Shown here piece after piece: positions 963 through 54,415 of a DNA stretch of 64,000 bases (the stretch's first letter is position 1; every line of letters begins with the position of its first letter). The notes below the pieces were generated by a model that saw nothing but the letters and a program-made list of their open reading frames with translations, was not told the origin of the DNA and ran no database searches. This DNA comes from an uncultured delta proteobacterium (GTDB lineage: Bacteria; Desulfobacterota; BSN033; UBA1163): contig CAWHGS010000043.1 of the NCBI GenBank assembly GCA_963828805.1, positions 585 to 64,584 of the forward strand. The letters are read 5' to 3'. The position numbers were made by a program, and so were the translations under genes.

Positions 963-1037
963 TGGAGGCGGCAACCGGATTTGAACCGGTGAATAACGGT
1001 TTTGCAGACCGTCGCCTTACCACTTGGCTATGCCGCC
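963..1037 (-). tRNA. tRNA-Cys (anticodon GCA), CCA encoded
   Basis: The reverse complement is GGCGGCATAGCCAAGTGGTAAGGCGACGGTCTGCAAAACCGTTATTCACCGGTTCAAATCCGGTTGCCGCCTCCA. It has a cloverleaf, a CT-GCA-AA anticodon loop and a GGTTCAAATCC T-arm. Confidence 0.9.
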
Positions 1038-1039
1038 GT

Positions 1040-1116
<77 letters not shown>

Positions 1117-3913: not shown

Positions 3914-5283
3914 TTACATCCTCCCCATGGATCGTTCCAAACTCGCCCTGGCCACATTATAATCGCTCAGCGCGCCGTAGTAATTGACCCTGGTCTGGGC
4001 CAGCAAGGTGACCGCGTCAAGGACGTCGAAAGCCGTGGCAACCTGATACTTGTACCGTTCCTCGTTCAGCCTCAAGTTCTCTTCCGCCTGCTCAATCGAC
4101 TTCGCTGCCGTATTTACGTTCTTCTCCGCCACCCCCATGTTCAAGTAATCTTCCTTTACCTCCAGGATCACCCCTTCCACGATCTGAGTCTTCGAATCCT
4201 CGGCCTGGGTCACCTTCACCTTGCTCGCTCCAACCTGGTTATAGACCTTTCCCCAGTCCCACAGCGTCATCGAAGCCACGGCCGAAATGCTCCACCGGTC
4301 GCTTTTGAGGTCGCCGTTGAGAAAAAATTGGTCCGAGTTCCTGAAGTAGTTGCCCGCAAGGCTCACCGTTGGAAGCATCCCGCTCCGGACAATCTTGACG
4401 CTCTCCTTCGCCTGGCCCACCGTCAGTTCGGCCACCTTGATCTCCGATCTCTGCTGCAGCGCCTCGCCGACGCACTGCTCCAAGGTCAGAGGGAACGGTT
4501 TGTAATCCAGGATATCGACCAGTCTCCACCGGCTCATTAATCTCCCTGCGGAGCAGGTTATTGAATGAAGACTTTGGCCACCCCCACATCGTTCTCGGCG
4601 CTGGCCTGGGCCTGCAGGGCATTGGCCAGTCTCACCTCGGCCTGCAAAACATCGTTCTTCGGGATCAGTCCCACTTCGAAGAAGGCCCGTGACACCTCCA
4701 ACTGACCTTCGAACTGCTTGACCGCCTGTTTTGCAACCTCTACAAATTTCTCGGCCCTCAAAATATTGAAGTACCCTTGTCTCACATTCAGGACGACGTT
4801 CTGTTTGGCGATTTCGACATTGGCCTTTGAGATCTCCAAGCCCAATTTGGAGGAGCGGTAGTTCGCGAGGTAAGCGCCACCGGCGTAGAGGGTTTGGGTG
4901 AGCGTCGTATATAGGCTGAAAGTATAACGGGTTGTTTCAGGAATGGTCACCGTTACCGGAGTGGCATTGGCAATGGGGTCTGCAACCGGTTTGGGGGGCG
5001 TCACGATGGAGGTGGCCGACTGGGTTCCGACCTGGACCGGGCTGCTAAACCAGGTGTAACCATACTGGCCTTGCCACTGGGGGAAGAAATAGGCCCTGGC
5101 CGTTTTCCGGTTGAATTCTGCGCCCATCACCCCTTCCTTGGCGGAATGCACGGCCAGACTCCGCTCCAAAGCGATCCGAATCGATTCGTCAAGGGTCAAC
5201 GGTCCCGGAGTGCTCTGGGCCCATGTAAAATTTGCCAAAAGAAATGTTAACAAAATGAAACCAGTCACTCCTTTGATCTTCAT
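3914..5283 (-). pseudogene. TolC-family outer membrane efflux protein, interrupted by two single-base shifts
   Basis: ORFs 4558-5331 (signal peptide plus first OEP repeat) and 3914-4537 (second repeat) belong to one gene. The linking peptide FNNLLRREINEPVE lies in a third frame. I resolve apparent extra bases near 4566 and 4527. The likely start is MKIKGV at 5283, with an AAAGGAGG RBS. Confidence 0.8.
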
Positions 5284-5378
5284 CAAACCATCTCCTCCTT
5301 TCACTGACAGAACCTTCATAAACCGTTCCACAAATGCAATGCCGGGACAGGAATGATTTCTCTGATCAATGAGAATTC

Positions 5379-5408
5379 ATTCTAAAATCGCGGCAAAGAG
5401 GTTGTCAA
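5379..5408 (-). promoter_or_regulatory. sigma70-type promoter upstream of the TolC-like gene
   Basis: The minus strand has TTGACA (5408-5403), an 18-nt spacer and TAGAAT (5384-5379). Confidence 0.45.
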
Positions 5409-5667
5409 ATCATTTTTTACCGAACTTGCTCATTGCCATGGAATCAACCAAGGCCGGAGTCCATTTCCGCACCTGAACCCGCCCCTCCTGCCGAACCACG
5501 GGAAAGGCATCCCGCGAGGCGCCAAGACACCACCCTCTGGCTGAGATTCTGGTAAGGCTCAGGGAAGAAATTTCAGGCTATCCGAAGGGTAGAGGATCGG
5601 AGATGCTGCGCGAAGGGGCTTCGGCGAAAGCAGGGCACGCAGGCATGCCCGTTCTCGCAACCGCGGG

Positions 5668-6918
5668 TCAAAAGAGTTTCAACTGCTCCGTTGTCTTTTC
5701 GTCCTCTCTCTCTTCCGGGAAGAGGCTGATCTTTCCAAAAACACCATCATGACCCGGAAGGATCAAAACCTTTCCCTGCCTCATTCGAATGATCGCCTCC
5801 AAGATCTTCGGGGGAACGTAAGACTGTAACTCATCCGGAGGGGCATCGAGAAGAATCTGAAACTCAGACCCTCCTCTCTCCAGCAGTCTCTCATATTCCG
5901 TTTCAACAGCCTTTGTCCCGACTCTTTGGCCCAGACCCTCTGCAATGATCTCTTCGAGGGGAATGAGGTGAATGGAAGGAATGGCATTCCTGGGAACGAA
6001 CCCCTCCGGCCGGTCCGCGAGTTCTTCGACACGATGCACCACGCCCACCGTCAGTTTCTTATGGCACTTTGGACAAAGGTACTGGTGGCTCCTCGTTTGG
6101 GGGGGAGCAAAGACAACCCCGCAATCGCGGTGTCCATCGTAATGATATTTTCCCTCCTCCGGGAAGAACTCGAGGGTGAAGAGAAATCGCTTCCGATCCT
6201 TCGTCCGGAGGGTCTCCGTTAATTCTCCGTAATCGAGCGGACCATGGAAGGCATTGGCCTCTCTTCCCAGACGGTTTGGAGAATGGGCATCGGAGTTGGA
6301 GATCAGAGTGATCCTGTCGAGCGCCGAGAGTCTCCAGTTCATTTCAGGGTCAGAGGAGAGTCCTGTTTCAATGGCATAAATGAACGGGGTCATCTCTCCG
6401 AAACATTCCTCAATCGAGTCAAATCCTGAGTTGGCGCCAAAGATCGAGAACCAGGGTGTCCAGGCATGGGCCGGGATGACCATGCAATCAGGCGAGATGT
6501 CCAGGACCATCTTTGCGAGGTCTTTTGCGCTGAAGCCGAAGATGGGCCTTCCATCAGAGGAAATCTTCCCGAGGTTTCCGAGCTTGGAGGAAAGGGTTTG
6601 AACAACCTCCAGGCTGGGGGCAAAGATAAGAGTATGAATTCGTCTCACCTTTCCCCCCTGGGAATAGATATTGCTCAATTCGGTCGTCAGGATGAAGCGG
6701 ACTCCCTGATCCTCTTTTTTAAGCCGCAGAAATCCGTTACCCAACGGTTCCAATTTCGACCGCAGCTCCGCCAGGTAAGAGGGGTGGGTAAAATCGCCGG
6801 TTCCAAGAAGGGAAATCCCCTTCTTTTTCGCCCATCGGGCCAGGGTCTCCACATCCATGTCCTTGCTCGTGGCCCGGCTATACCTTGAATGGAGGTGAAA
6901 ATCGGCAATCATCCGCAT
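5668..6918 (-). CDS. endonuclease Q-like (TIGR00375 family) PHP-domain protein
   Basis: N-terminus ADFHLHSRYSRATS (PHP-type metal site) and a C-terminal Zn-finger CPKCHKKLTVGVVHRVEEL. The layout matches what I recall for EndoQ. Confidence 0.6.
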   Translation of the reverse strand: MRMIADFHLHSRYSRATSKDMDVETLARWAKKKGISLLGTGDFTHPSYLAELRSKLEPLGNGFLRLKKEDQGVRFILTTELSNIYSQGGKVRRIHTLIFAPSLEVVQTLSSKLGNLGKISSDGRPIFGFSAKDLAKMVLDISPDCMVIPAHAWTPWFSIFGANSGFDSIEECFGEMTPFIYAIETGLSSDPEMNWRLSALDRITLISNSDAHSPNRLGREANAFHGPLDYGELTETLRTKDRKRFLFTLEFFPEEGKYHYDGHRDCGVVFAPPQTRSHQYLCPKCHKKLTVGVVHRVEELADRPEGFVPRNAIPSIHLIPLEEIIAEGLGQRVGTKAVETEYERLLERGGSEFQILLDAPPDELQSYVPPKILEAIIRMRQGKVLILPGHDGVFGKISLFPEEREDEKTTEQLKLF

Positions 6919-7184
6919 CGATGAAACCCATTAGTTAGAAAATAGCATGTCGCGTCAGACGTCAGGGCAACGATGCCCGTAGCGTCATTCGGAAACGTTC
7001 TTAGAAAGTCAATCGCTCGTAGCCGCACCGACCCTATCCGAAACGGGTTCGTCGCGACCCGCTTCCCGCAGGCAGGGGAAGCATTCCGTGATATGGATCA
7101 TGCCTGCCTAGCCGGTAGGCAGATTACACCTCTCCGGGCATGAGTAGGAGGATCTAACGATCAGGGGAGGGTTCCGATGAATTC

Positions 7185-7409
7185 CTATTTCTCTTCAACT
7201 TCCAGAACTTTTTTCTTCGATCTCAATCCCGATAGAATCGAAACTCGGGATTTTGGAACGTCGAAATACTCCGCCAAGGTTTCGATGACTTCTTTATTCG
7301 CCTTGTTCTCCCGGGGAGATGCAATGACCTTGACGAGAAACTGGTTAGGGCCTGTGGGCTCGACCTCGCGCTTTTTAGAATTAGGCTTTACCGTGATCGA
7401 AACCTTCAC
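7185..7409 (-). CDS. DUF167 (YggU-like) protein
   Basis: 74-aa ORF: VKVSITVKPNSKKREV...VKVIASPRENKANKEVIETLAEYFDVPKSRVSILSGLRSKKKVLEV. This is the typical DUF167 pattern. It uses a GTG start. Confidence 0.75.
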   Translation of the reverse strand: MKVSITVKPNSKKREVEPTGPNQFLVKVIASPRENKANKEVIETLAEYFDVPKSRVSILSGLRSKKKVLEVEEK

Positions 7410-7624
7410 AACCCCCCTCTGCGAAGAGGCCCATTCCCATTTCTATTTTCCTGGGAACCGCCCTCCGCTGTCGCTTCCTCCATAAAATGCCACAACAGCG
7501 ACCCTGTTGAAAGGTCCACCCAAAGGAGCAGGGGAAAAAAGCCGGGCCATGTTCCAACTCAGAACGACCGTTCACCCGTTCGACTGCGCGAAGCCCTGGT
7601 CTTCGGGCCGAGGAGCCGAAAGGT

Positions 7625-22108: not shown

Positions 22109-22270
22109 AAAACCCTGATCTCTAAATCCCGATGCGTGGATCCTCAAACCGAAACACGTTCCGATCATCCGAATCTAAAACGAACAGATGAAGTTCGTCC
22201 CCGTAGATTTGAATATTTGAAATTCGAGCTTGCTCCGGATGTCGGCATCCGAATTTGGGATTCTAACAGG

Positions 22271-23821
22271 TTACTTCTTTTTGGCGGGTCCCAAGGAATT
22301 GAGATAATCCTCGATCACCTTTTTCGGGTCTAACCCGAGGCACTGGGCATACCCCTTTAAAAATCCCTTGAGGTAGACCTGGGCCGGAAGCTGCCCAACG
22401 TTCTCTTCTTCGATCCACTTCCAAGATCTTGAGGGTAATCCTCGTCTCCATGAAGATGGTCTTCAGATCAATCCCCATCTTTTCACGGATCTGCTTCAGC
22501 ATCTTTCCCCGGTAAGGACCTTCTCCCAGGTCGACGGAAATCTCCGAAAAAGGAAGGTACGTCTTTTTTTCCATGGGGCTTTCAGGAGCCTCGGGGAGTT
22601 TTTCCGACCTGGGCCATTTCAGATTCAGGGCGGAAAGGTGCGTCTGATCGTAATTCTTTCTCGAGGTCTCATCCATGAGGACCCGGTGGGCCTCCTCAAT
22701 CACGGCCTGTATCTTCTCCATCTCCTTTTCCGAAAAGAGGGAATAGACCGCCACGGAATCGTTCTGATAGGTCTCTTTCGCACGTTCGTAGGCCTGTTGA
22801 ATTTCCCTGCTGGTGGCATCGGGGCAGACCTCTAAGATTTCATAATAGGTCTGCTCTTCAATCCGCTTCATCTGTTCTTCCCCTTGAAACCGAAAGGCCA
22901 TCTGATGTTTGTTTGCCATCTTAGAGGCAATCTCAGCCACGCATTGGGCTGCTTTGGAACGCGGATTTTCTAAGACCAGAGGCCTTCTCTTCCGAATCGA
23001 ATTGCTGACATCCTGGTCATAAACAACGTATCCCAAATAATGGAGATGGATCCCGAAATATTGTTTGCAGGCGCTCCGGATGGAAAACCCCACTTCTATA
23101 TCCTTCTTCGTCCTGACCTGATTGAGAATGAGGTTCGGTGGAAATCCCTCCACCTCCCGGCCACCTTCCTCGCCTCCTCGTCGCCGACCCGGGTCATGGC
23201 CTCGATCAGATCCGAGGGGTTCTGAATTCCGAGTTCATTTTTCCGATCCATGGCTCCATCGATCAAGGCCTTCGCTTCCGCAGAGGACACGGCACTCCTG
23301 ATCCTCCGATAAAAAGCGCTCTTGAGAAAGCGATAGGCATTTTCGATGGAGGTGGGCTCAGGAGTCACCACGAGAATCCCCCCGTCGGACATGAGGAAGA
23401 AATCGAGGACATTCAGGGCATTGCCCGCTCCAAGATCAACCAGAATATAGTCGCTTTCGAGATGCTGAATGGAGCGAAGGAGCTTCCGTTTCTGAACGCT
23501 CTTGGCATCCGCCGCGTTGAGGAGGTCCTGGGCGCCGCTCAGGAGCTGGAGGTTTGGAACCGACGTTGGAATCAAAACCTCCTGCAGGTGAGGGACCCGT
23601 CTTCTGGATGAAATCAGAAAGGGAGAGGTTGGGAGGCGAAACCCCTAGAAAGGTGTGGAGATTCGCCCCCCCCAAATCAGCATCAACAAGGATGACCTTC
23701 GACCCCGAGTTGAGAGAGACAGATGCCCATATTGACGGTGATAAAGCTCTTACCACTGCCTCCCTTGCCTCCTCCAATGGTCCAGATCACCTTTCGGTTG
23801 CCACTCGAAGGCTGACTCATC
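22271..23821 (-). pseudogene. MinD/ParA-like P-loop ATPase fused to a J domain and a RodZ-like HTH, interrupted
   Basis: My translation from 23821 gives MSQPSSGNRKVIWTIGGGKGGSGKSFITVNMG, a deviant Walker A. It continues VILVDADLGGANLH...ILVDLGAG...VVTPEPTSIENAYRF. Next comes the J domain YYEILEVCPDATSREIQQAYERAKETYQND, then KMLKQIREKMGIDLKTIFMETRITLKILE. The corrected tail ...YLKGFLKGYAQCLGLDPKKVIEDYLNSLGPAKKK* ends at 22271. Confidence 0.7.
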
Positions 23822-31881: not shown

Positions 31882-34091
31882 TCAAGATTCGCAGGAAGAT
31901 CGATAGATTCGCTGCCCGATGGCATCGGCAATCGCATTCAGAATGGCAGGGGCAGTCGGAATCAGGGCCGGTTCTCCCACGCCCTTGGCTCCAAAGGGAC
32001 CGGTCGGTTCCTCGTCCTCAACCAGGATTGGGATCACTTCCGGAATGTCCTTCGAGGTGGGAATGAGGTAGTTGACGAAAGAGGATGTCTCTTCTGGAAC
32101 GAATTCCTCCATCAGGGCAAATCCCAACCCCATCGCGACACCACCCGTGATCTGCCCTCTCACATTCTTCGGATGAATCGCCTTTCCAACATCATGGCAT
32201 GCAACGATCCGGTTGACCTTGACCCTTCCCGTCTCTGTATCGACCTCCACCTCTGCCAGGTGGGTGGCAAAGGCATAGGTCGCATAAGGAATGCCCTGAC
32301 CTGTTTTGGGATCGAGTTTGGTCGTCTCCGGATCAAAAAAACCTTCTCCCCTCAGCAATTTCCCGGATCTTCTTGCCACCTCCTGCATTGAGATACGAAT
32401 GCCGCGAGGATCCGATTTCGACCGAATATGCCATCTTCCAGGAGCAGTTCTTTTTCGGGAATACCCAGCATCAGGCCTGCCTCTTTTAAGGCCTCCTGTT
32501 TCAGGTTTTTGATCGCATTGAGGATCGCATTGCCGGAGATGTAGGTCTGCCGGCTTGCTGAGGAGGCGCCTGCATCGGTCGTCATGGCCGTGTCGGCCCG
32601 AATCAAACGGATCTCTTTTAAATCCACTCCCAGGGCCTCAGACGCAATCTGAAGGAGGACGGTATCCGATCCCTGACCGATGTCTGCTGCTCCGGTCAGA
32701 AGCCGAATTTCTCCATTGGGATGGATCTCCATCTGTGCCGTGGAGGGATTGGCAACCCCCGTATTCCCAATCCCGTACCACATGGAACCGACACCGACTC
32801 CTCTTCTTGATATAAGGCCTTTTCGGGTCCTCCCTGGAGAAGACCTGCTGATCCCTCCACTCTTTCACTTTGCGAAGGGTTTCCCCAATCCCGACACTTG
32901 CCGTGAGCGTCTGCCCTGTGGCTGTTTCAGCGCCGACCTGAAAGGCATTCTTCAGCCGAATCTCGATCGGGTCCATCTTCAGACCCCGGGCAAGGAGGTC
33001 CATCTGCGACTCGTGGGCAAAGGCCATTTGAGGCACGCCAAACCCCCGCATCGCTCCGCTCCAGGGGTTGTTGGTATAGACCATCTGGCTCCTCGACCTT
33101 GACATTGGGAACCTAGTAGGGCCCTGTGGCATGGACAGCCGAACGGATGCAGACAGCAACCCCGTAGGAGGCATAGGCCCCCGAATCACCGAGAATATCC
33201 ACTTCGACGGCGGTCAATGTTCCGTCTTTCTTCGCGCCGCTCTTGTATCGGATCTTCAGGGGATGGCGCTTGGAAGTTCCCTGAAAGACCTCTTCACGGG
33301 AATAGACGATCCTGACCGGCTTTTTGAGATGGTAGACGGCCAGGGCCAAGAAAACAGTGAACCGTAATGTCCAGTCTTCCTCCAAACCCACCACCGGTGG
33401 CGCTCTGGATGATCCGGACCTTTTCCAAGGGCAAACCCAGCGTCGAAGCCACGTCCTTCTGATCGTAATGGATGTTTTGAGTCGGACAGACGACGGTGAC
33501 CCTTCCCTCTTCATCCAGGTAAGCGATCCCGGCATCCGGCTCTAAATAGGCATGCTCAACCCATGTGGTGGTATAGGTCTCTTCTGCGATGAAGTCCGCT
33601 TCTTTAAATCCTGCCTGGACATCCCCCTTGATCACATGAAATTCGAGAAGCAGGTTTCCCTTTTCATGGATGGAGGGAGCATAGGGTTTGAGGGCCTCTT
33701 CCGGGCTTGAAATAAACGGGAAGGTCTTCATAAGTGATCGACCACTCGTCTGGCTGCCTCTTCTGCGGCCTCAGCCGACCTCGCAGCAACCAGTGCCACC
33801 GGGTCACCGATATATCTCACCCGGTCGGAGGCTAAGACGGGTTGATCCTTTGTTAATGATTCCGATCAGATTTTTCCCGGGAATGTCTCTTGCAGTAAAG
33901 ATCCTCTCCACCCCTGGAACCTTGAGGGCTTCATCGATCTGGATGCTTACAATCCTGGCGTGGGGCTTTTCACTCCGGACCACTTTCAGATGAAGAGGAT
34001 CCTCGATCGATTGATCGGCTCCATACCTGGCAGAACCCAGAACCTTTTCCAGGACATCGACCTTCGGGATGTCAATTCCCACCTGTTTCAT
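31882..34091 (-). pseudogene. xanthine dehydrogenase-family molybdopterin-binding large subunit, heavily interrupted
   Basis: The N-terminus is MKQVGIDIPKVDVLEKVLGSARYGADQ at 34091. Successive collinear fragments are 33294-33731, 33113-33535, 32638-33189, 32352-32783 and 31882-32388 (...GAKGVGEPALIPTAPAILNAIADAIG). The real stop may lie further down, at about 31761. Confidence 0.8.
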
Positions 34092-41045: not shown

Positions 41046-41822
41046 TTATTTGTCCTTGTTGAAGAACTTAGCAAGCCGTTCCCTGACTTCACTAAAGTCA
41101 CCAACACTCGAATAGCCGTTGATTGTTTCAAGGCGCAGAGCGTCGTCCAGTGGCCGACCGATGATATCGAGCACCGTTTCCTTTGCGGAGCGTATCGCTT
41201 GCTGGCTGTTTCCAAGGATCATGTTCGCGTAGGTTTCCGCGGCGGACAGAACCTGCTCGGCGGGAACAACTTTGTTAACAAGACCAAACCGAAAGGCTTC
41301 ATCTGCAAGTACCTCCCGACCCGTAAGCGTCAGTTCCAGCGCCACGGCTACACCCGCGATGGCCACGAGGCGAACCAGGCCTCCGTCGCCTTGATGCAAC
41401 CCCTGGCGCACCTCGAACACCCCGAACTTTGCAGAGTCCGCGGCGACGCGGATGTCACAAGCCAGAGCCAGCTCGAATCCGCCGCCGATCGCGTGACCGT
41501 TGATCGCTGCGATGATCGGCTTCGTCATTCGATGCTGACCACGCGTGATGCCTCCGCCAATGCCGCGGGCTGCGTTGCGGCGGGCGTCCAGCATATTGGC
41601 GTGCTCCCATTTCGGAATAAACGTCTTGAGGTCGGCGCCCGCGCAAAAGGCTTTACCTGCGCCGGTCAGGATTGCAACATCTACGGAGGGATCGTCATTG
41701 AAATCCCGCCAGATAGCCCAGAGCTCGTCATTCATCTCGTCATCCAGGGCATTCAGCGCGTCGGGCCGATTTAGCGTGACATACGCAATTCGGTTCTTCT
41801 TTTCGTAAATGGCTTTTCCCAT
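41046..41822 (-). CDS. enoyl-CoA hydratase/isomerase (crotonase) family protein
   Basis: Sequence RIAYVTLNRPDALNAL...AILTGAGKAFCAGADL...PIIAAINGHAIGGGFELALACD. The ORF is intact at 258 aa. Confidence 0.85.
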   Translation of the reverse strand: MGKAIYEKKNRIAYVTLNRPDALNALDDEMNDELWAIWRDFNDDPSVDVAILTGAGKAFCAGADLKTFIPKWEHANMLDARRNAARGIGGGITRGQHRMTKPIIAAINGHAIGGGFELALACDIRVAADSAKFGVFEVRQGLHQGDGGLVRLVAIAGVAVALELTLTGREVLADEAFRFGLVNKVVPAEQVLSAAETYANMILGNSQQAIRSAKETVLDIIGRPLDDALRLETINGYSSVGDFSEVRERLAKFFNKDK

Positions 41823-42129
41823 TGCGAGTCTCCTCCTGAAGCCAATGTGGACCTATCGGTGAGCTAACCGGTATGCACTTTTTCGCGCGTCCGCTCGAAC
41901 GATTTGTCAGGCGTGTAGTTTTTTTCGCAATTTGGATTAGCGACAGCAGGGCACTATTCACAGCTTCTTGATTTGGGAAAGCTTGAGCGACTTCCGGTTT
42001 AAGTACAACAACGTTTGATGATTCACGGAGACGTTCGGCATACTTGCCCCGCACGAGCCCCTTGGGAAAGTCCGACCGTTTGTACTCGGCACGTAATTCG
42101 TCTTTATCTCTTTGTTTAGCCTTCTTCAT
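41740..42129 (-). CDS. brnA: BrnA-like antitoxin (long C-terminal tail overlaps the crotonase start)
   Basis: Sequence ...RAEYKRSDFPKGLVRGKYAERL...VVLKPEVAQAFPNQEAVNSALLSLIQIAKK. The start overlaps the stop of the upstream DUF497 gene. Confidence 0.55.
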   Translation of the reverse strand: MKKAKQRDKDELRAEYKRSDFPKGLVRGKYAERLRESSNVVVLKPEVAQAFPNQEAVNSALLSLIQIAKKTTRLTNRSSGRAKKCIPVSSPIGPHWLQEETRNGKSHLRKEEPNCVCHAKSARRAECPG

Positions 42130-42388
42130 ATAGTTTTCGCTCTCCTTTGCTCGCTAAACGAGCACTTATGATTCGAATCGTTTCATCTTCCTCAGTGTGA
42201 GCCACCACCAGCAACCGACCTCGGTCTGAGACTCCGAAGGTGATATATCGATCTTCGGTAATCGAGTGATCCGGATCAGCACCTGTTGCCGCCATAGGGT
42301 CACTCATGGCTGTTGCGGCTTCCTCGAACGAGACTTTGTGTTTTCGTAAGTTTAACCTGGCCTTCTTCGGGTCCCATTCGATTTTCAT
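42116..42388 (-). CDS. brnT: BrnT toxin (DUF497)
   Basis: Sequence MKIEWDPKKARLNLRKHKVSFEEAATAMSDP...EDRYITFGVSDRGRLLVVAHTEEDETIRIISARLASKGERKLYEE, the canonical DUF497 pattern. Confidence 0.8.
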   Translation of the reverse strand: MKIEWDPKKARLNLRKHKVSFEEAATAMSDPMAATGADPDHSITEDRYITFGVSDRGRLLVVAHTEEDETIRIISARLASKGERKLYEEG

Positions 42389-42670
42389 TTTATTATTATA
42401 CCTTAATTCCGATATTATCGTCCAACGCAGATTGAATCCTGGTCTTGGGATTTCAGCGCAGATCAGGCGCGCATGAGGGAACATTATATATTATTGTACT
42501 TATGACGCGAGTATATAAAAGCAATTGGGATGTGTTAAGGAGTCTTTCTTGAGGAATGCTTGATACAATAGTAATGGTATCGGTGGGTTCGCTACGCTTA
42601 ACCCACCCTACTTTTGGTTTAGACTTTATTTTTTTGTTTCGTGTACTTACCCTATGCGCTGTGCTATTTT

Positions 42671-46638: not shown

Positions 46639-47805
46639 TCAGGTCCAGATCCCGGGGATCGGTTTACCGCAGAACTTACATTTTCCTTCCTTAAGATTCA
46701 CTTCTCCGACCATGTACCCTGCCCGCTTGATCACCATTTTCTTGCACTTCGGGCAGAAGGTGTTCTCACCCTCGTGGCCCGGCACGTTTCCGATGTAAAC
46801 ATATTCGAGACCCGCGGATTGAGCGATGGACCGGGCCTTCTCCAGGGTTGAGACCGGCGTTGGGGGGAGGCCTTTCAGCTTAAATAATGGGTAGAAACGG
46901 GAGAAATGGAGCGGAGTCTCCGCTCCCAATTCCTTCTGTATCCAGACACACATCTCCTTCAGGGTGGACAGGTCGTCATTCTTGGTCGGAATCACCAGAT
47001 TCGTTATCTCAAGATGAACCTTCTCCCGTTTATAGGTCTTCAGCGTCTCAAGCACAGGCTGAAGTTCCCCGCTGCAGACATCGCGGTAGAAGTCATCCGT
47101 AAACCCCTTCAGATCGATATTGGCCGCATCCATGACCCTGCACAGGTTCCGGAGGGGCTCCGGATTGATGAACCCATTCGAGTGGCAGACATTGAGAAGC
47201 CCTGCCCTCTTCGCAAGCTCTCCGATATCCGCCATGTACTCGTAAAAGATCATCGGCTCAACATAGGTGTAGGCGACAGACCGGGCCCCCATCTCTTTGG
47301 CCTTGCCGATGACGAGCTCCGGAGGCACATCGTAATTGTACAGGTCCTCGGGCGAAGCCTGAGAGATTTCCCAGTTCTGGCAGAACTTGCACTGGAGGTT
47401 GCATCCAGCCGTGGCGAGCGAGAAAGAAGTTGTTGCCGGAAGAACGTGAAAGAGCGGCTTCTTCTCGATCGGATCCAGGTGAATGGCGCACGGGTTCCCG
47501 TAAACCAGGCTGTAGTATTTCCCGTCCCGATTCTCCCGGACCCGGCAAAAACCTCTCTTCCCCTTCGATACCCTGCAGGACCTCGGACAGAGGTCGCACC
47601 GGACGTCGCCCCCGCTGAGCGGGGTGAAGTAGGGAGAGAGCTTGGTTTTGACGAGTCCCTTCTTCTGAGTCTGGGCTCCTGTCCCCTTTGGAATGAGCGA
47701 AGCGAGTGCAACAGCGCAGATACCCTTTCCGCAGATCTCCAGAAACTCTCTCTTCGATACGCCGGAAAAAGCAGAAACTCGGGGAGTCAAACGTGGCTCG
47801 CTCAT
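46639..47805 (-). CDS. AmmeMemoRadiSam-system-type radical SAM enzyme with Tat-like N-terminal leader
   Basis: Radical SAM cluster motif GCNLQCKFCQNWEIS. Upstream CDLCPRSC...GFCRVR and a C-terminal CPKCKK...CKFCG ribbon. The N-terminal SKREFLEICGKGICAVALASL resembles a Tat/anchor leader. Confidence 0.7.
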   Translation of the reverse strand: MSEPRLTPRVSAFSGVSKREFLEICGKGICAVALASLIPKGTGAQTQKKGLVKTKLSPYFTPLSGGDVRCDLCPRSCRVSKGKRGFCRVRENRDGKYYSLVYGNPCAIHLDPIEKKPLFHVLPATTSFSLATAGCNLQCKFCQNWEISQASPEDLYNYDVPPELVIGKAKEMGARSVAYTYVEPMIFYEYMADIGELAKRAGLLNVCHSNGFINPEPLRNLCRVMDAANIDLKGFTDDFYRDVCSGELQPVLETLKTYKREKVHLEITNLVIPTKNDDLSTLKEMCVWIQKELGAETPLHFSRFYPLFKLKGLPPTPVSTLEKARSIAQSAGLEYVYIGNVPGHEGENTFCPKCKKMVIKRAGYMVGEVNLKEGKCKFCGKPIPGIWT

Positions 47806-47874: not shown

Positions 47875-48936
47875 GTGACCCGCATGGACCTCACACGCCG
47901 CAGGTTTATAAAGAGATCTCTTCTTTTCGGAAGTTCGCTTCTATTCTCTCTCCCCAGCTTACAGGCCAAACCCGTAAAGGACGAAAAATGGATTCCAGCT
48001 TATGCAAATCTTGAAAAGGAAGGGAAATTCGGCCAGAAGGTCAAGGAAGCCTATGCCCTCTTCGAAAAGTGCGAACTCTGCCCCCGGAAGTGCGGGGTCA
48101 ACCGGGCCAGGGGCGAGAAAGGCTTCTGCAGGGCCCCCCTGAAGCCCGTGGTCTTCGGTCACCACCCTCACTTCGGCGAAGAAATGTCCCTGGTCGGGCA
48201 GAACGGGTCAGGAACAATCTTCTTCTCCAACTGTAACCTCCGCTGTATCTTCTGCCAGAACTGGCCCATTGCCCACGAGGGAAGAGGCAAGGAGATCCGC
48301 GATGAAGACCTTGCCGAGATGATGCTCGACCTCCAGGGCAAGGGTTGCCATAATATCAACCTGGTCACACCCACGCACGTCATGCCCAACATCCTGAACG
48401 CGATCCGGATTGCCTTAAAGAAGGGACTGAATCTCCCTATCATGTACAACACGAGCGGCTATGAACGCGTCGAAGCACTGAAACGGCTCGACGGCGTTGT
48501 CGACATCTACAAACCCGATTTTAAATACATGGATCCTGATAAGGCGGAAAAGTATTCCGCCGGAGCCTCTGACTATCCCGAGGTAACAAAAAAGGCGGTC
48601 ATCGAAATGAACCGGCAGGTCGGGGTGCTCCAGCTTGATAGCCATGGGGTTGCCAGGCGTGGGGTGATCATCCGGCATCTGGTCATGCCCAACCGGGTTG
48701 CCGGAACGGAGGAGTTCACTCGGTGGGTGTCAGAGTCCCTTCCCAAGAACACCTATATCAACATCATGGCCCAGTACCGGGTTGAGTATAAGGCATTTGA
48801 ATATCCGGAGATTGCACGGGGAATCACGGTCCAGGAATTCACAGAGGCCATGGACTGGGCCATCCGCTACGGTCTCACAAACCTGGACCCGAAATCAAAG
48901 GAACTGAGGGAATTTTACCGGCGCCGTGCCGGGTAG
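47875..48936 (+). CDS. PflX-like (COG1313-type) radical SAM protein with twin-arginine leader
   Basis: MDLTRRRFIKRSLLFGSSLLFSLPSLQA is a Tat consensus (RRxFIK). It also has CELCPRKC...GFCRA and CNLRCIFCQNW. Confidence 0.65.
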   Translation: MTRMDLTRRRFIKRSLLFGSSLLFSLPSLQAKPVKDEKWIPAYANLEKEGKFGQKVKEAYALFEKCELCPRKCGVNRARGEKGFCRAPLKPVVFGHHPHFGEEMSLVGQNGSGTIFFSNCNLRCIFCQNWPIAHEGRGKEIRDEDLAEMMLDLQGKGCHNINLVTPTHVMPNILNAIRIALKKGLNLPIMYNTSGYERVEALKRLDGVVDIYKPDFKYMDPDKAEKYSAGASDYPEVTKKAVIEMNRQVGVLQLDSHGVARRGVIIRHLVMPNRVAGTEEFTRWVSESLPKNTYINIMAQYRVEYKAFEYPEIARGITVQEFTEAMDWAIRYGLTNLDPKSKELREFYRRRAG

Positions 48937-49148
48937 GAAAGAGCAACTATTGATACATCCCCTGAACCCCAAGCGAATCCATCCGAGCTATTCAATCGTA
49001 AACGTCCTGATCTCTGAGATGGTTTCACGATTTATTCCATCCCATGCCCTGATCCTGAAGTAACCAGTCCACGTCTCCACCGTTCCCGGCCTTGGGCAGC
49101 GATTCCCCAGGCGTCTCACCGCAGGGGTCGGCGCATCATGCAGAGACG

Positions 49149-50405
49149 TTATTTGGCTCGGGACTGGCGGTAGTACCACTGCATCTGTCCTGCGCTGCTC
49201 TCTTCGTCCACGTTCTCCATGGTAACCATCTTCTTCCCGGCGGCAGGGAGGCAACACTTCTTTCAGTTTCCACTGATTATCCAGCCGTCCGAAGGTCCAA
49301 TACTCCTCGAAAGGAGTTACGTATTCCTGCTGATCCCTGAGCTTGTCGCCTTCGTAGAAAATCCTCTGGGCGTGGGCGCTGATTCTCACCGTGTATTCGT
49401 CTTTGGAGTTATCGGCGAAATTCCGCACCAGGATCAGCTCAGCCTTTCGCACGCAGAGATTGCGGTACTCAACCCTTCGCCCATCCTTCCTCCACTGCTG
49501 AATCTGTTGACGAAGGTGCTCGGTCACCTTCGGGAATAGATCGGCTGCAGGCACCTTATCCGGGTCTCCGGATTCTTTGGTCAGGTAGACTCTCATGAAG
49601 ACCTCCCGGGCCCGTTCAAGCATCTGGTTCCGGTCCCAGAGTCTATCGGTCTGCACAAGGAAGTTCAGCATGCGCTCGATGCGGGTTGCCTTCTCCTCGG
49701 TTTCCTTCTCCAGCCAGGGTCCTGCTTCCCCTTTCTTTTCGGCCACCTCTCCGTAGATCCCCTTGACGGTGTCATCGGTCAGCATCTCGGCGAAGTTCTC
49801 TTCCTTGAGCATATCGGATTCTCCGGCCTGCTCGATCTCCCGCAGAAGCCACTCGGTCGCCAACCCGGTGGAAGGTCCAGAACTCCTGGAAACGGGCCGG
49901 CGCCTTGTCGCCTCGCAGGAATTTTCCGCTCCTGTCGTCCACATAGTAGTCTCTCGCCGATGCAGTAATCAGGGCTGTGAACTCCCGCTGATCCGGCTTC
50001 TCCGTGTACCGGACGTTGACCAGGTCGATGTATTCCACCTTGAGGTTCTCGATCCGGTTGATCTCGTGGTTCGCAACCATTCCACTTAACTGGGCCGTGT
50101 GCTGGTTGAACAGGTCCGGCATCATGAGGGGCTTCATGGGCTCATACTTCCGGGCCTGCCAGCACTCCTGGAGCTTTCGAAAAGTGGAATCGGCCAGCTT
50201 CCGCAATTCCTCGGGCTTGACCGAGGAATCCTGCTGACCGAGGAAAATCAGTAGCTTTTCGGTCTTCCCAGCCTTCGGGGACTACCTTGTTTCTGTCATA
50301 AACAAAATCAAGGTTTTCGCTCTTCTTGCTCTTCCTACTTGCTCTCCATAAGGCAATAAATATTATCGAAGAAGACAAGAATGAAAAGCCCAGAAAACAA
50401 ACCAA
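49149..50405 (-). pseudogene. membrane-anchored protein with two Tim44-like domains, interrupted
   Basis: N-terminal TM helix MVCFLGFSFLSSSIIFIALW. Domain 1 is FRKLQECWQARKY...FQEFWTFHR...WLLREIEQ. Domain 2 is AREVFMRVYL...FEEYWTFGRLDNQWKLKEVLP. My corrected tail ...KKMVTMENVDEESSAGQMQWYYRQSRAK* ends at 49149. Confidence 0.65.
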
Positions 50406-50417
50406 GATGAACCACCT

Positions 50418-52185
50418 TCACCGACCCCCGCCACTGCTGGAACTGGAACGACTGGAACTGGAACTTCCCCCCTTGTTGTGGGTCACAAAGTTTGCCGCCA
50501 AAAAGGTATTGGGCGATCCGACACTGAGGTTGTAGACCGGTTCTTCCTTTTCCCCCAGTTGGGTCCGAAGGACTGTTGCGGACCGCACTTCGCCGTCATT
50601 CCAATTAAGAACCTTCTGCCCGGGCCGGAGCCTGCCAGCCGGGATAAACCCTCCGCCCAGTAGCCCCACGGGATGGTCTGTCGTGGTCCTTAGGCAGCCA
50701 CGATCCGTTTCGACGGCAAGCACGAGCGAGCGGGTATCGAAGATCTTCTCAACCCGCGTCTCCAACCTCTGGCCCTGAGAGTCCAGCGCAAGAACCGGCT
50801 CCCCCGGGGAGAGCTTCTCAATCGCAGTTTCGCCCTTCGGGGTACAGATCGGGGTCCCTGCCGGGAAGCACCCGCCTCCCTTGTTGTGGACAACGATCCC
50901 ATCCGCTATGAATGTATTGGGCGCTTCCACCTGGAGGTTGAAGACCAACTCATCACCTACCGGATGGGAGATGCCATGCACCTTCCTTTCAACCAGCCTG
51001 CCGTCCTTCCACTTCAGGATTCGGTCTCCCGGCCGGAGTTCCCCGGCCTGTCTGAACCTTCCTCTTCCAATGCTTACAGGGTGCTCCTCTGTGGCAGCCA
51101 GGACCTCTTCGCCCGTCCTGATCTGCATGACAGGGCTTTTGCTGATAAAGAGGACTTTCACAGTGGTCCGGACGGTATGACCTTCGGTGTCAACCGCAAG
51201 AACCTCATCACCCGATGCGAGTGTCTCAATGGAAACCGTTCCATGGGGTGTCGCAATCTTTGTGCCGGCTGGGAAGCACCCCCCTCCTCCGCCCTTGTTG
51301 TGAACGGCAAGTTGGCCCGCGAAAAAGGTGTTAGGGTGATCGGTCTGGAGGTTAAAGACCTCCACTTGCTCATGGACTTTTTGCAATGAGACAATCCGCT
51401 GCTCGGCAAGCCACTTGTCCGTCCCAAGTAAAAACCGTATCCCCCTCTTTGAGCGCTTCAACGGTCTTGAACGTGCCATGTCCAACATAAAAGGGGTGCT
51501 CGGCCGTGACCCGAAGCGTTGTCTGGTCTGTCTTAAGGAGAAAGTATTCGTCGACCTTGAGACGAACGATCTCCCGCACCCTTGCCTGAACCATGCGCCC
51601 TCCAGGCTTAAAGGCCAGGAGCGTCGTCCCCCGGCCTGAGGGCACTGATTGGTGATTCTGTTCCGTCTGGCCTGAGAATCCGGCTATCCGGCAGAAAACA
51701 CCCTTTGTTATGAACAACGAGCCCCTCTGTAACAAACGTCCCGCCAGGGCTGACGAGCAGGTTATAAGCCGGCCGCCTTGCGGCCATCCGGCGGACCGAC
51801 AGAACCTGGGCTGGCGCGGAGGCGTCCATTTCGCATTTCGAAAACCGTGTCGCCCTTGCTTGAGCCGATCCGCGAGTCGGTATTCGCCCCGGCCCACCAT
51901 CAACAGATGTTCGGCAGTAACCTCCAGTCTCGACCCGGAAGCCGAAACTTCCAGAAATTCCTCTGGCTCCACCGCCGTCAGCGCCTGGACTTCGGCCCTC
52001 TTCAGCCTCCCCTCCACGACGCTCCAGACGGTGTCTCCCTTCTTCAGCCTTTCGATGGCAACCGATCCATCCGGGGTCGAAACGAGCGTACCCTCTGCCA
52101 AACACCCTCCGCCCCCCCGTGCCCACGAAATGACAGGGCTAAGACAGAGCAGGAGAACGGCTGACCACCACATCATCCACGCCAT
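50418..52185 (-). pseudogene. exported protein consisting of four tandem Hint (intein-like) modules, interrupted by frame shifts
   Basis: Signal peptide MAWMMWWSAVLLLCLSPVISWA. The four modules span 52104-51707, 51700-51297, 51278-50883 and 50870-50475. Each is Cys...TxxH...HN, and they are joined by K-G(n) linkers. The Ser/Gly tail ends at 50418. Confidence 0.7.
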
Positions 52186-52277
52186 ACGCACCTTCCTTGA
52201 TTCGTGACTGAGGCCAACACTCACATCAAACCTCATGCGTCGCGCTGCATCTCAGAGACCGGTGACCTTACTCGTGC

Positions 52278-53479: not shown

Positions 53480-54415
53480 CTAAGACTTCCTCCGGTCCAC
53501 TTTGACTTTTCCCCGGATCTCATCGAGGCACGTGATCCCTTTTGCCTCCATATACTTTTCTATGCCATCGATGATCTCAAAAACGACCCAGGGGTCTCTA
53601 AGCAGGGCCGTGCCAACGCCAACAGCGGTGGCGCCTGCCAGGATGAATTCGATGGCATCCTCCCAGGTCATGACCCCGCCCATGCCGATGATCGGGATCG
53701 CGAACGGTCCTGTAGACATCCCACACCATTTTGATGGCAACAGGCTTAATGGCCGGACCGGAAAGCCCTCCGATCACATTCCCGAGCTTCGGCCGTTGAG
53801 TCTGGATGTCGATGGCCATTCCTGCTAGGGTATTGATCAGGGTAAGGGCATCGGCCCCGTTCTTTTCAACGCTTCGTGGCAATCAACGTGATGTCACTGA
53901 CATTCGGGGTCAGCTTTGCAATCACAGGGAGTCTGGGTGCTTGCCTTCACCAGGCGAACAATCCGACCCGCCACCTCAGGATCAGCGCCAAGACTGCATC
54001 CTCCCATCTCCAGGTTGGGGCATGAGATATTCAGTTCAATGGCTGAAATGCCCTTCCTCCCGGTCAAGGAGGGCAGCCAGCTTGGGATAATCCTCTACGT
54101 AGTTTCCTGAAATGCTGACAATGACAGGAACATCCGCATTCTCTTAAAATAGGCAGATCGTGCTCGATGAAATGTCTAACCCCCTGGCTCTGGATCCCGA
54201 TGGAATTCAGGATCCCTGACACACACTCGGCGATCCTTGGATTTGGATTGCCTGCCCGTTTTTCCAGGGTGATGCTCTTGGCCGTAAAAGCCCCCAGCAC
54301 GTTCAGATCATAGAGTTGGGCAAGTTCCTGTCCATAGCCGCGAGGTTCCTGAGGCGGTCACGATCGGATTCTTCATCTTGATGCCACAGAGCGTGACACT
54401 GAGATCAGGTTTCAT
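53480..54415 (-). pseudogene. pyrD: dihydroorotate dehydrogenase (class 1B) catalytic subunit, interrupted
   Basis: My translation from 54415 gives MKPDLSVTLCGIKMKNPIVTASGT. The fragments are 54064-54300, 53598-53882 ([12 protein letters not shown]...[12 protein letters not shown]) and 53480-53740. Confidence 0.85.

Follow-up and report, generated by a model that had tools for sequence, protein, structure and literature searches.

What kind of protein carries several complete intein-like modules head to tail behind a signal peptide? The question is raised by a stretch of 64,000 nucleotides from contig CAWHGS010000043.1 (assembly GCA_963828805.1, an uncultured delta proteobacterium), the whole of which is referred to here as the window. 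Hint domains are familiar from inteins, where they are single inserts, from C-terminal processing domains (those of Hedgehog, pretoxin-HINT and the bacterial intein-like, or BIL, domains), and from BUBL, where they alternate with ubiquitin-like cargo. On the minus strand of the window, between 52236 and 50418, three overlapping open reading frames (ORFs) in different frames carry four repeats of ~132-134 amino acids, which a first-pass annotation had read as an exported protein made only of Hint modules. We find that back-to-back BIL-type Hints make up the exported N-terminal part of a Tim44-like membrane protein paired with DUF350, and that this is a widespread, uncharacterised architecture. 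Our explanation of the locus as a whole is that its product is a single bitopic inner-membrane precursor of ~1025 amino acids, broken here by ten single-base insertion errors, and that the Hint array would remove itself in the manner of type-A BIL domains. We regard this complete account as about evenly balanced between right and wrong; its parts differ in strength and are taken up in turn below.

Reconstruction of the reading frame

A tblastn comparison of the homologue P0002 with the window mapped its full architecture to 52185-49152 in successive frames. The window ORFs at 50142-50405, 49772-50206 and 48988-49944 correspond to the transmembrane (TM) helix and the two Tim44-like domains of the Hint gene, and the frame breaks within Hint modules 1 and 2 are genuine features of the window sequence as given. 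When aligned at the DNA level with the P0002 and P0001 genes (90-91 % nucleotide identity), the window has seven single-base insertions relative to both and zero deletions. The alignment with loci L001 and L002 did not settle the linker and TM region, which is variable there, and a closer match, L088, was needed. This locus carries the gene for P0004 (91 % nucleotide identity), whose linker and TM segment resemble those of the window gene, and its alignment revealed three further +1-equivalent shifts at ~50424, 50393 and 50366. Residues matching the P0004 sequence …GDWFVFVFMGIFIVVFFVIFIAIWRAS are distributed across all three window frames. In total, ten single bases are inserted, at 51861, 51814, 51626, 51417, 50424, 50393, 50366, 50283, 49854 and 49249. 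Their deletion yields one ORF of 1025 amino acids without an internal stop, running 52236→49149 on the minus strand, and its product is 90.6 % identical to P0004 (1027 amino acids) over the full length.

On this comparison the TGA at 50418-50420 lies outside the true frame. It is reached in reading because the three extra +1 errors restore the register of the wrong frame. A true stop, selenocysteine and read-through at this codon were each considered and rejected, as the P0004 comparison puts the true frame in the other two frames. The first-pass annotation had let the protein end in the Ser/Gly tail GGSSSSSRSSSSSGGGR; judged by the same alignment, this C-terminal tail is an assembly artefact, and the ORF runs on to 49149. 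The sequence as given might also be read as a free-standing secreted four-Hint protein, with the TM-Tim44 part translated separately from a TTG at 50405, since there is an in-frame TGA after GGGR and an AGGTGG 6 nt ahead of that TTG. We find this scarcely credible. Over 50346-50424 the true frame differs from that of the TGA, with P0004-like linker and TM residues lying in f0 and f1 at 91 % nucleotide identity; moreover, all complete homologues are fused, and frame errors of the same kind occur throughout the window.

Interpretation of the gene as a pseudogene was also rejected: the ten lesions are all insertions relative to three independent relatives, with no deletions, and the restored ORF retains its high identity to intact P0004. 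Elsewhere in the window, a pyrD-like gene at 53480-54067 (minus strand) is broken across three frames, and chains of overlapping same-strand ORFs in different frames recur window-wide, for example at 32352-33731, 41046-42484 and 22263-23777 (all minus strand). As fragmentation of the same type extends across the window, we conclude that it is due to assembly error, not gene decay. The practical lesson for this window is that the odd structure of the Hint-Tim44 gene is an assembly artefact. An insertion-biased assembly or polishing error is suggested to touch every gene call of the contig; the base-level check covers the Hint-Tim44 gene alone. Correction of the frame keeps the array in one ORF, not split into unrelated genes, but the description of the protein as cargo-less is lost with it: the complete homologues and the corrected window gene run on from the Hint modules to a TM helix and two Tim44-like domains.

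The corrected protein (Table 1) opens with a signal peptide and RGGGG, after which come four Hint modules; a Ser/Gly linker then leads to a single TM helix, and the two Tim44-like domains behind it precede a conserved C-terminal QWYYRQSRAK. Upstream of Hint 1 its N-terminus reads MRFDVSVGLSHESRKVR-MAWMMWWSAVLLLCLSPVISWA|RGGGGC, with a basic n-region (…HESRKVR), a hydrophobic core and a small-x-small site, and the signal-peptide-like start seen in the first-pass annotation is retained on these sequence features. A hydrophobic stretch followed by (W/x)A-RGGGG-C is common to family members of many phyla; R23 and G24-27 are invariant in the family alignment (A1), and 45 of the 46 complete genome-derived ORFs contain RGGGGC. 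The cues to topology (Lys/Arg in the n-region, SWA|R, and RASRKSKK after the TM helix) were likewise read from the sequence and are common to the family. The corrected TM reading agrees with the P0004 TM segment WFVFVFMGIFIVVFFVIFIAIWRAS.

In P0002, PF04280 (Tim44) matches two stretches (E=4.2e-24, 85.8 bits against a gathering cut-off of 29.6), and the window ORFs map onto both. The match to NF033779 (Tim44/TimA) is sub-threshold (51 vs 80 bits). The C-terminal, Tim44-like 430 amino acids are the best-conserved part of the protein. An AlphaFold2 model was made of P0002, which is 92 % identical to the window product. The model has a mean predicted local distance difference test score (pLDDT) of 75.5, with the module blocks at ~75-90, and consists of four beta-rich modules, a disordered linker (pLDDT <50 in its Ser/Gly part), a helix and two alpha/beta Tim44-like domains, the first of them at residues 631-785.

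Table 1 Features of the corrected Hint-Tim44 gene and of the two genes upstream of it, in window coordinates
Feature	Coordinates	Strand	Remarks
Whole gene	49149-52236	-	1025-amino-acid precursor after removal of 10 insertions; alternative start ATG at 52185
Sec-type signal peptide, predicted	52120-52236	-	n-region HESRKVR, h-region MAWMMWWSAVLLLCLSPVI, SWA|R site
RGGGG	52105-52119	-	all that would precede Hint 1 after cleavage of the signal peptide
Hint module 1 (CLAEGT…TAEH…VVHN)	51707-52104	-	inserted bases at ~51859-51861 and 51814
K-G linker, modules 1/2	51701-51706	-	
Hint module 2 (CFLPDS…TAEH…AVHN), 134 amino acids	51297-51700	-	inserted bases 51626 and 51417
KGGGGG linker, modules 2/3	51279-51296	-	
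Hint module 3 (CFPAGT…TEEH…VVHN)	50883-51278	-	frame intact
KGGG linker, modules 3/4	50871-50882	-	
Hint module 4 (CFPAGT…TTDH…VTHN)	50475-50870	-	frame intact
K-GG-Ser/Gly-rich flexible linker KGGSSSSSRSSSSSGGGGEGGSS (corrected reading)	50405-50474	-	inserted base ~50424 creates the false TGA
Single TM helix WFVFGLFILVFFVIFIALW, then RASRKSKKSEN on the positive-inside side	50346-50404	-	inserted bases ~50393 and 50366
Tim44-like domain 1, predicted cytoplasmic	49830-50240	-	PF04280 in P0002, tblastn mapping, model; inserted bases upstream at 50283 and at 49854
Tim44-like domain 2, predicted cytoplasmic	49250-49685	-	PF04280 in P0002, tblastn mapping, model; inserted base 49249 just past it
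DUF350 small membrane protein gene, 89 amino acids	52278-52547	-	Pfam PF03994, E=7.5e-6; directly upstream
LemA-family gene, 186 amino acids	52719-53279	-	Pfam PF04011, E=4e-60; first of the conserved three-gene cluster in delta-proteobacterial lineages

Identity and conservation of the Hint modules

With the intact modules 3 and 4 as tblastn query against the region, the four head-to-tail modules were recovered exactly where the first-pass annotation had placed them. Each begins with Cys after a Gly run, has T-x-x-H inside, and ends in H-N followed by K-G(1-5), again in agreement with that annotation. Repair of the four frame breaks gave a 587-amino-acid product that was used for hidden Markov model (HMM) searches. 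In Pfam it matched Hint (PF01079, E=6e-31), PT-HINT (PF07591, 1e-30), Hint_2 (PF13403, 2e-29) and Intein_splicing (PF14890, 3e-23), with each score above its gathering threshold; on the repaired array the models for intein N- and C-termini, TIGR01445 and TIGR01443, also exceeded their cut-offs. When tested singly, modules 3 and 4 pass Hint_2 (38 and 30.9 bits vs 28.4), and module 3 passes PT-HINT and Hint as well. The repeat array as a set of Hint modules is real and the match is far beyond chance.

The predicted fold is also that of Hint domains. Foldseek searches of the PDB with the P0002 model returned as top matches BIL2 of the Tetrahymena BUBL1 locus (6y75/6tmm; E=8e-9) and a C. thermocellum BIL (2lwy), then mini-inteins and the Hedgehog C-terminal domain (HhC). 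Target-normalised template-modelling scores to BIL domains, mini-inteins and HhC are 0.77-0.87 (0.86 for 2lwy and 0.82 for HhC, 1at0). The best PDB sequence match of the modules, obtained with module 3, is the BIL domain 2lwy (E=3.6e-11); the best intein is at 2e-6. By PDB sequence matching and Foldseek ranking, the modules appear closest to BIL domains, over inteins or Hog domains.

Conservation of the residues that BILs and inteins use was scored in two sets of modules. Among 430 modules of 120 proteins the block-B Thr is present in 99.5 % and the block-B His in 100 %. The other set comprises 214 full modules from 80 species-level genomes of at least 8 phyla, called by HMM and not by motif. 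Here Gly-1, Cys1, the block-B His, His-Asn, Lys+1 and Gly+2 are all at 100 %, and the block-B Thr is at 97.7 %. In every module of the window the +1 residue after HN is Lys, with no Cys/Ser/Thr. On these residue frequencies the autoprocessing set is intact and under strict selection. In one family member, P0214, the array starts RGGGG-S-LAKGT, with Ser for Cys at position 1 of module 1, and an HNKG motif is found only near residue 298; P0214 may be a rare Ser-nucleophile variant or have a degenerate first module.

Modules at the same position of the array are 55-72 % identical across species. Different positions are 30-38 % identical to each other, and modules 3 and 4 reach 44 %. From this high same-position and low cross-position identity we conclude that the array is old and that each position has been maintained.

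Predicted processing and its alternatives

Type-A-BIL-like autoprocessing in the periplasm is the most likely mechanism of the array, as judged from the residue set, the model and the analogy to characterised domains. Sec export would place the Hint modules in the periplasm, where each could act as a type-A BIL. An N-S acyl shift by Cys1 would turn the Gly-Cys bond into a Gly thioester, and cyclisation of the terminal Asn would cut the HN|K bond. Hydrolysis of the thioester would then amount to pure cleavage; alternatively, the K-G flank set free could attack it, either through its alpha-amine, as proposed for BILs of type A, or through the Lys epsilon-amine, which in Tetrahymena BUBL BIL2 gives the isopeptide. 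Through such single-turnover reactions the array would remove itself in the periplasm. The remnant, Tim44x2 on its TM anchor with a short tail of Gly, Lys and Ser in the periplasm, would cooperate with DUF350 and LemA at the membrane. The array could be a self-removing pro-region or a chemically gated fuse (thiol, redox or metal sensitive), its size set by a copy number of 1-5.

Described BILs occur in variable secreted proteins of the adhesin/RTX type. Those of type A have His-Asn and no +1 nucleophile, and they mostly cleave, with ligation possible via the freed amino group (PMC4031507). The family modules resemble type-A BILs (2lwy) in Cys1, in the block-B TxxH, in the His-Asn end, in a +1 residue other than Cys/Ser/Thr and in being part of exported bacterial proteins; thioester formation and Asn cyclisation would be the expected chemistry by analogy. 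With Lys in place of Cys/Ser/Thr at +1, canonical splicing is impossible, and the first-pass expectation that these modules do not splice is supported by the type-A situation. In contrast to type-A BILs, the family has 1-5 head-to-tail copies with only K-G(n) between them, and invariant Gly-1 and Lys+1/Gly+2, and its host protein is a conserved Tim44x2 protein anchored in the membrane and encoded in a DUF350/LemA operon; the host context of BILs is not given in the type-A review (PMC4031507).

A canonical class-1 intein was rejected for each module. In addition to the +1 Lys, the modules sit between the signal peptide and the Ser/Gly linker with RGGGG and K-G(n) as flanks, no functional site is restored, and they are exported and have no endonuclease. 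The array might instead stem from selfish mini-inteins that entered a Tim44-like membrane protein in tandem, at a Gly-rich linker, and that simply self-splice. This would fit the mini-intein size and residues, the matches to intein N- and C-terminal splicing models and the existence of Hint-less TM-Tim44x2 relatives such as P0208. This origin is nevertheless very improbable: the +1 residue is Lys and not Cys/Ser/Thr, there is no homing endonuclease, the exported modules are placed in a linker and not in a conserved active site, and their positions are orthologous and stable across phyla, with a dedicated signal peptide and RGGGG leader.

Several observations weigh against a self-removing array. 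Cleavage, ligation and transfer are indistinguishable in silico, and the inter-domain arrangement of the P0002 model is of low confidence (predicted template-modelling score 0.40). Making up to five domains only to discard them looks wasteful. The identity of module positions across species reflects conservation well past the catalytic residues, which suggests that the modules do more than self-excise. Finally, the +1 residue can be Arg in other tandem-Hint proteins (HNR|CF), which weakens the case for a basic +1 residue as nucleophile. Because of the cost and of the conservation beyond the catalytic residues, we retain two further readings, one with an external acceptor and one with a structural stalk.

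In the first, the array is a thioester-transfer device in which an external nucleophile (a partner Lys, a lipid head-group amine or a peptidoglycan amine) would resolve the Gly thioesters. Covalent bonds would then be made in the periplasm without ATP, by conjugation or cross-linking, much as Hedgehog is coupled to cholesterol and BUBL BIL2 acts on Lys. The top structural match, BUBL BIL2, conjugates its own N-flank to Lys epsilon-amines; Gly-1 and Lys+1 are invariant, the partner membrane proteins are conserved, and stored thioester chemistry might be useful in an ATP-free periplasm. The segment activated by the thioester, on the other hand, would be only RGGGG or an upstream Hint with its K-G(n), there is no evident cargo to conjugate, and the acceptors named are candidates. 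We consider transfer to an external acceptor unlikely, although far from negligible.

Hedgehog HhC (1at0) is similar to the modules in the GG|CFP(A/G) cleavage-site motif, the Hint fold and the Gly-Cys thioester. It differs in that the family has neither a sterol-recognition region nor an N-terminal signalling cargo, each Hint being followed directly by K-G and then by the next Hint or the linker. The family modules also retain the terminal His-Asn, which Hedgehog is not known to have.

BUBL, a ciliate system (BIL2 6y75/6tmm), resembles the family in having several BIL domains per polypeptide. It acts in the cytoplasm and is eukaryotic, whereas the family is bacterial and predicted periplasmic, and it alternates BILs with folded ubiquitin-like cargo, whereas the family has only K-G(1-5) between modules. 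BUBL BIL2 has been described as an ATP-independent conjugation platform with a Lys acyl acceptor, whose epsilon-amine forms the isopeptide (PMC8616854); in the family, Lys is invariant at +1. The array might be a bacterial periplasmic counterpart of BUBL, in which single-use Hint 'cartridges' would store energy in Gly thioesters and pass the acyl group to Lys+1 or to amines of DUF350, LemA, lipids or peptidoglycan. We think this distinctly unlikely; if true, it would amount to ATP-independent isopeptide ligation or cross-linking outside the cytoplasm. Small K-G(n) products might also be set free on this reading, such as a Lys-Gly diketopiperazine out of the two-residue linker of modules 1/2.

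With multiple BILs per polypeptide at the Tetrahymena BUBL locus, and with Hint arrays in other metagenomic proteins, the tandem arrangement has precedents, which the first-pass annotation did not know of. What is unusual in the family is that consecutive Hints are parted by K-G(n) alone, with no folded cargo between them. Head-to-tail arrays without Tim44 were seen in P0219, P0262, P0254 and P0272. At least 8 Hints are strung together in P0219, which has HNK(G)CF or HNRSCF at their junctions and a collagen-like tail of Pro/Gly; P0262 resembles it. Three Hints each are present in P0254, together with a signal peptide and an N-terminal domain, and in P0272, together with a prepilin-like N-terminus. 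Some junctions in these arrays are just one residue long, Lys or Arg. Such tandem arrays with basic +1 residues may represent a wider Hint design that has yet to be described.

In the second retained reading, the Hints stay uncut and serve as structural repeats, a bead-like periplasmic stalk or binding module whose length follows the copy number of 1-5, the 'catalytic' residues having been preserved because folding or the binding of a ligand needs them. In its favour, the module positions are orthologous and show strong conservation outside the active site, copy number changes by whole modules, and the modules are independent beads in the model. We judge it quite improbable, given that the full autoprocessing set and both flanking residues are 100 % conserved in the 214 modules, which no known structural role explains, and that activity is known for BIL domains carrying this residue set (PMC4031507).

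The C-terminal half of the protein bears on the last alternative, a polymorphic-toxin precursor whose pretoxin-HINT would release a C-terminal toxin. PT-HINT (PF07591) is matched above threshold, the family shares with such proteins export from a bacterial cell and a Hint upstream of a C-terminal region, and P0016, P0109 and P0110 carry the NCBI automatic name 'polymorphic toxin-type HINT domain-containing protein'. We give this next to no credence. The C-terminal region is a highly conserved TM-Tim44x2 unit and not a variable toxin; there is no toxin domain, no toxin-trafficking N-terminal domain and no conserved downstream immunity gene, and a PADLOC scan gave no defence-system match. Bacterial Tim44-like/TimA proteins (PF04280, NF033779) are a known parallel for this half, with its two PF04280 domains beside a membrane anchor, and the family differs from the TimA type in the doubling of the Tim44 domain and in the exported Hint array in front.

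Distribution of the family and its genomic context

A homology search retrieved >1000 relatives. Complete ones are ~1010-1027 amino acids long with four modules or ~870-880 with three, and all have PF04280 Tim44. In complete homologues the signal peptide leads into the Hint array, which a Ser/Gly linker joins to a hydrophobic helix; a basic patch, the pair of Tim44-like domains and a conserved QWYYRQxRAx end follow. A profile search of 1.84 billion representatives returned 389 at E≤1e-30, and nearly all family members found by this search start with a signal peptide followed by A-R-GGGG-C. Copy number forms a series, from 1 Hint (~615-640 amino acids) through 2 (~720-790), 3 (~870) and 4 (~1010) to 5 in P0138 (1132 amino acids).

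In a species-representative genome collection, 279 stretches encode relatives. They are found in delta-proteobacterial/Thermodesulfobacteriota metagenome-assembled genomes (Syntrophales, Syntrophobacterales, Desulfarculales and Desulfobacterales) and also in Verrucomicrobiota, Planctomycetota, Nitrospirota, Lentisphaerae, Kiritimatiellaeota and Gammaproteobacteria. The cultured Legionella massiliensis LegA (L075 4650-7526, NZ_CCVW01000002.1) has a DUF350 gene together with an 862-amino-acid orthologue of the 3-Hint/Tim44x2 type, encoded at 4938-7526, which makes this cultured host a practical experimental entry point.

The Hint-less TM-Tim44x2 relative P0208 (420 amino acids; L091 1925-3187 and L092 1661-2923) lies in an unrelated context, where it adjoins a 427-amino-acid polytopic membrane protein, and no DUF350 gene was seen beside it at L091 and L092. 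An IS110 transposase lies just upstream of the P0208 gene in one genome. Further Hint-less relatives, P0196 and P0175, are on contigs whose shortness hides their context.

Comparison of the orthologous loci for shared neighbours, the follow-up envisaged in the first-pass annotation, showed that in 79 of the 80 loci with upstream sequence the immediately preceding gene, on the same strand, is a DUF350 gene, which often overlaps or abuts the start codon. A LemA gene precedes DUF350 in 48 loci, in delta-type lineages only. Downstream genes vary between loci. In the window, two divergent radical-SAM genes lie directly downstream (46639-47805, minus strand, and 47875-48936, plus strand) and are not conserved there in relatives. 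The window LemA protein has a sub-threshold match to the magnetosome MamQ model NF040966 (77 bits vs a cut-off of 250), which reflects the LemA fold and is no evidence for magnetosome genes. Promoter and terminator scans around the operon gave nothing above chance. Two adjacent tRNA genes at 966-1114 (minus strand) are the sole Rfam matches in the window.

An NCBIfam scan found no curated or specific model for the Hint-Tim44 family, and a literature search on Tim44 with Hint, on tandem or periplasmic BIL-Hint arrays and on DUF350 or LemA with Tim44 found no paper on it. The family thus carries automatic names only, of which the 'polymorphic toxin-type' label is misleading. Its members join one to five fully equipped Hints, back to back and predicted to lie in the periplasm, to a conserved Tim44-like membrane protein paired with DUF350, an arrangement of interest to intein and bacterial-envelope specialists. 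Bacterial Tim44-like proteins, DUF350 and LemA, all domains of unknown function, gain a shared, testable context. If the modules autoprocess as predicted, they would offer compact BIL domains with Gly-1/Lys+1 junctions for protein engineering, and the family would represent a conserved use of intein chemistry in the maturation of an envelope protein, in sensing or in conjugation.

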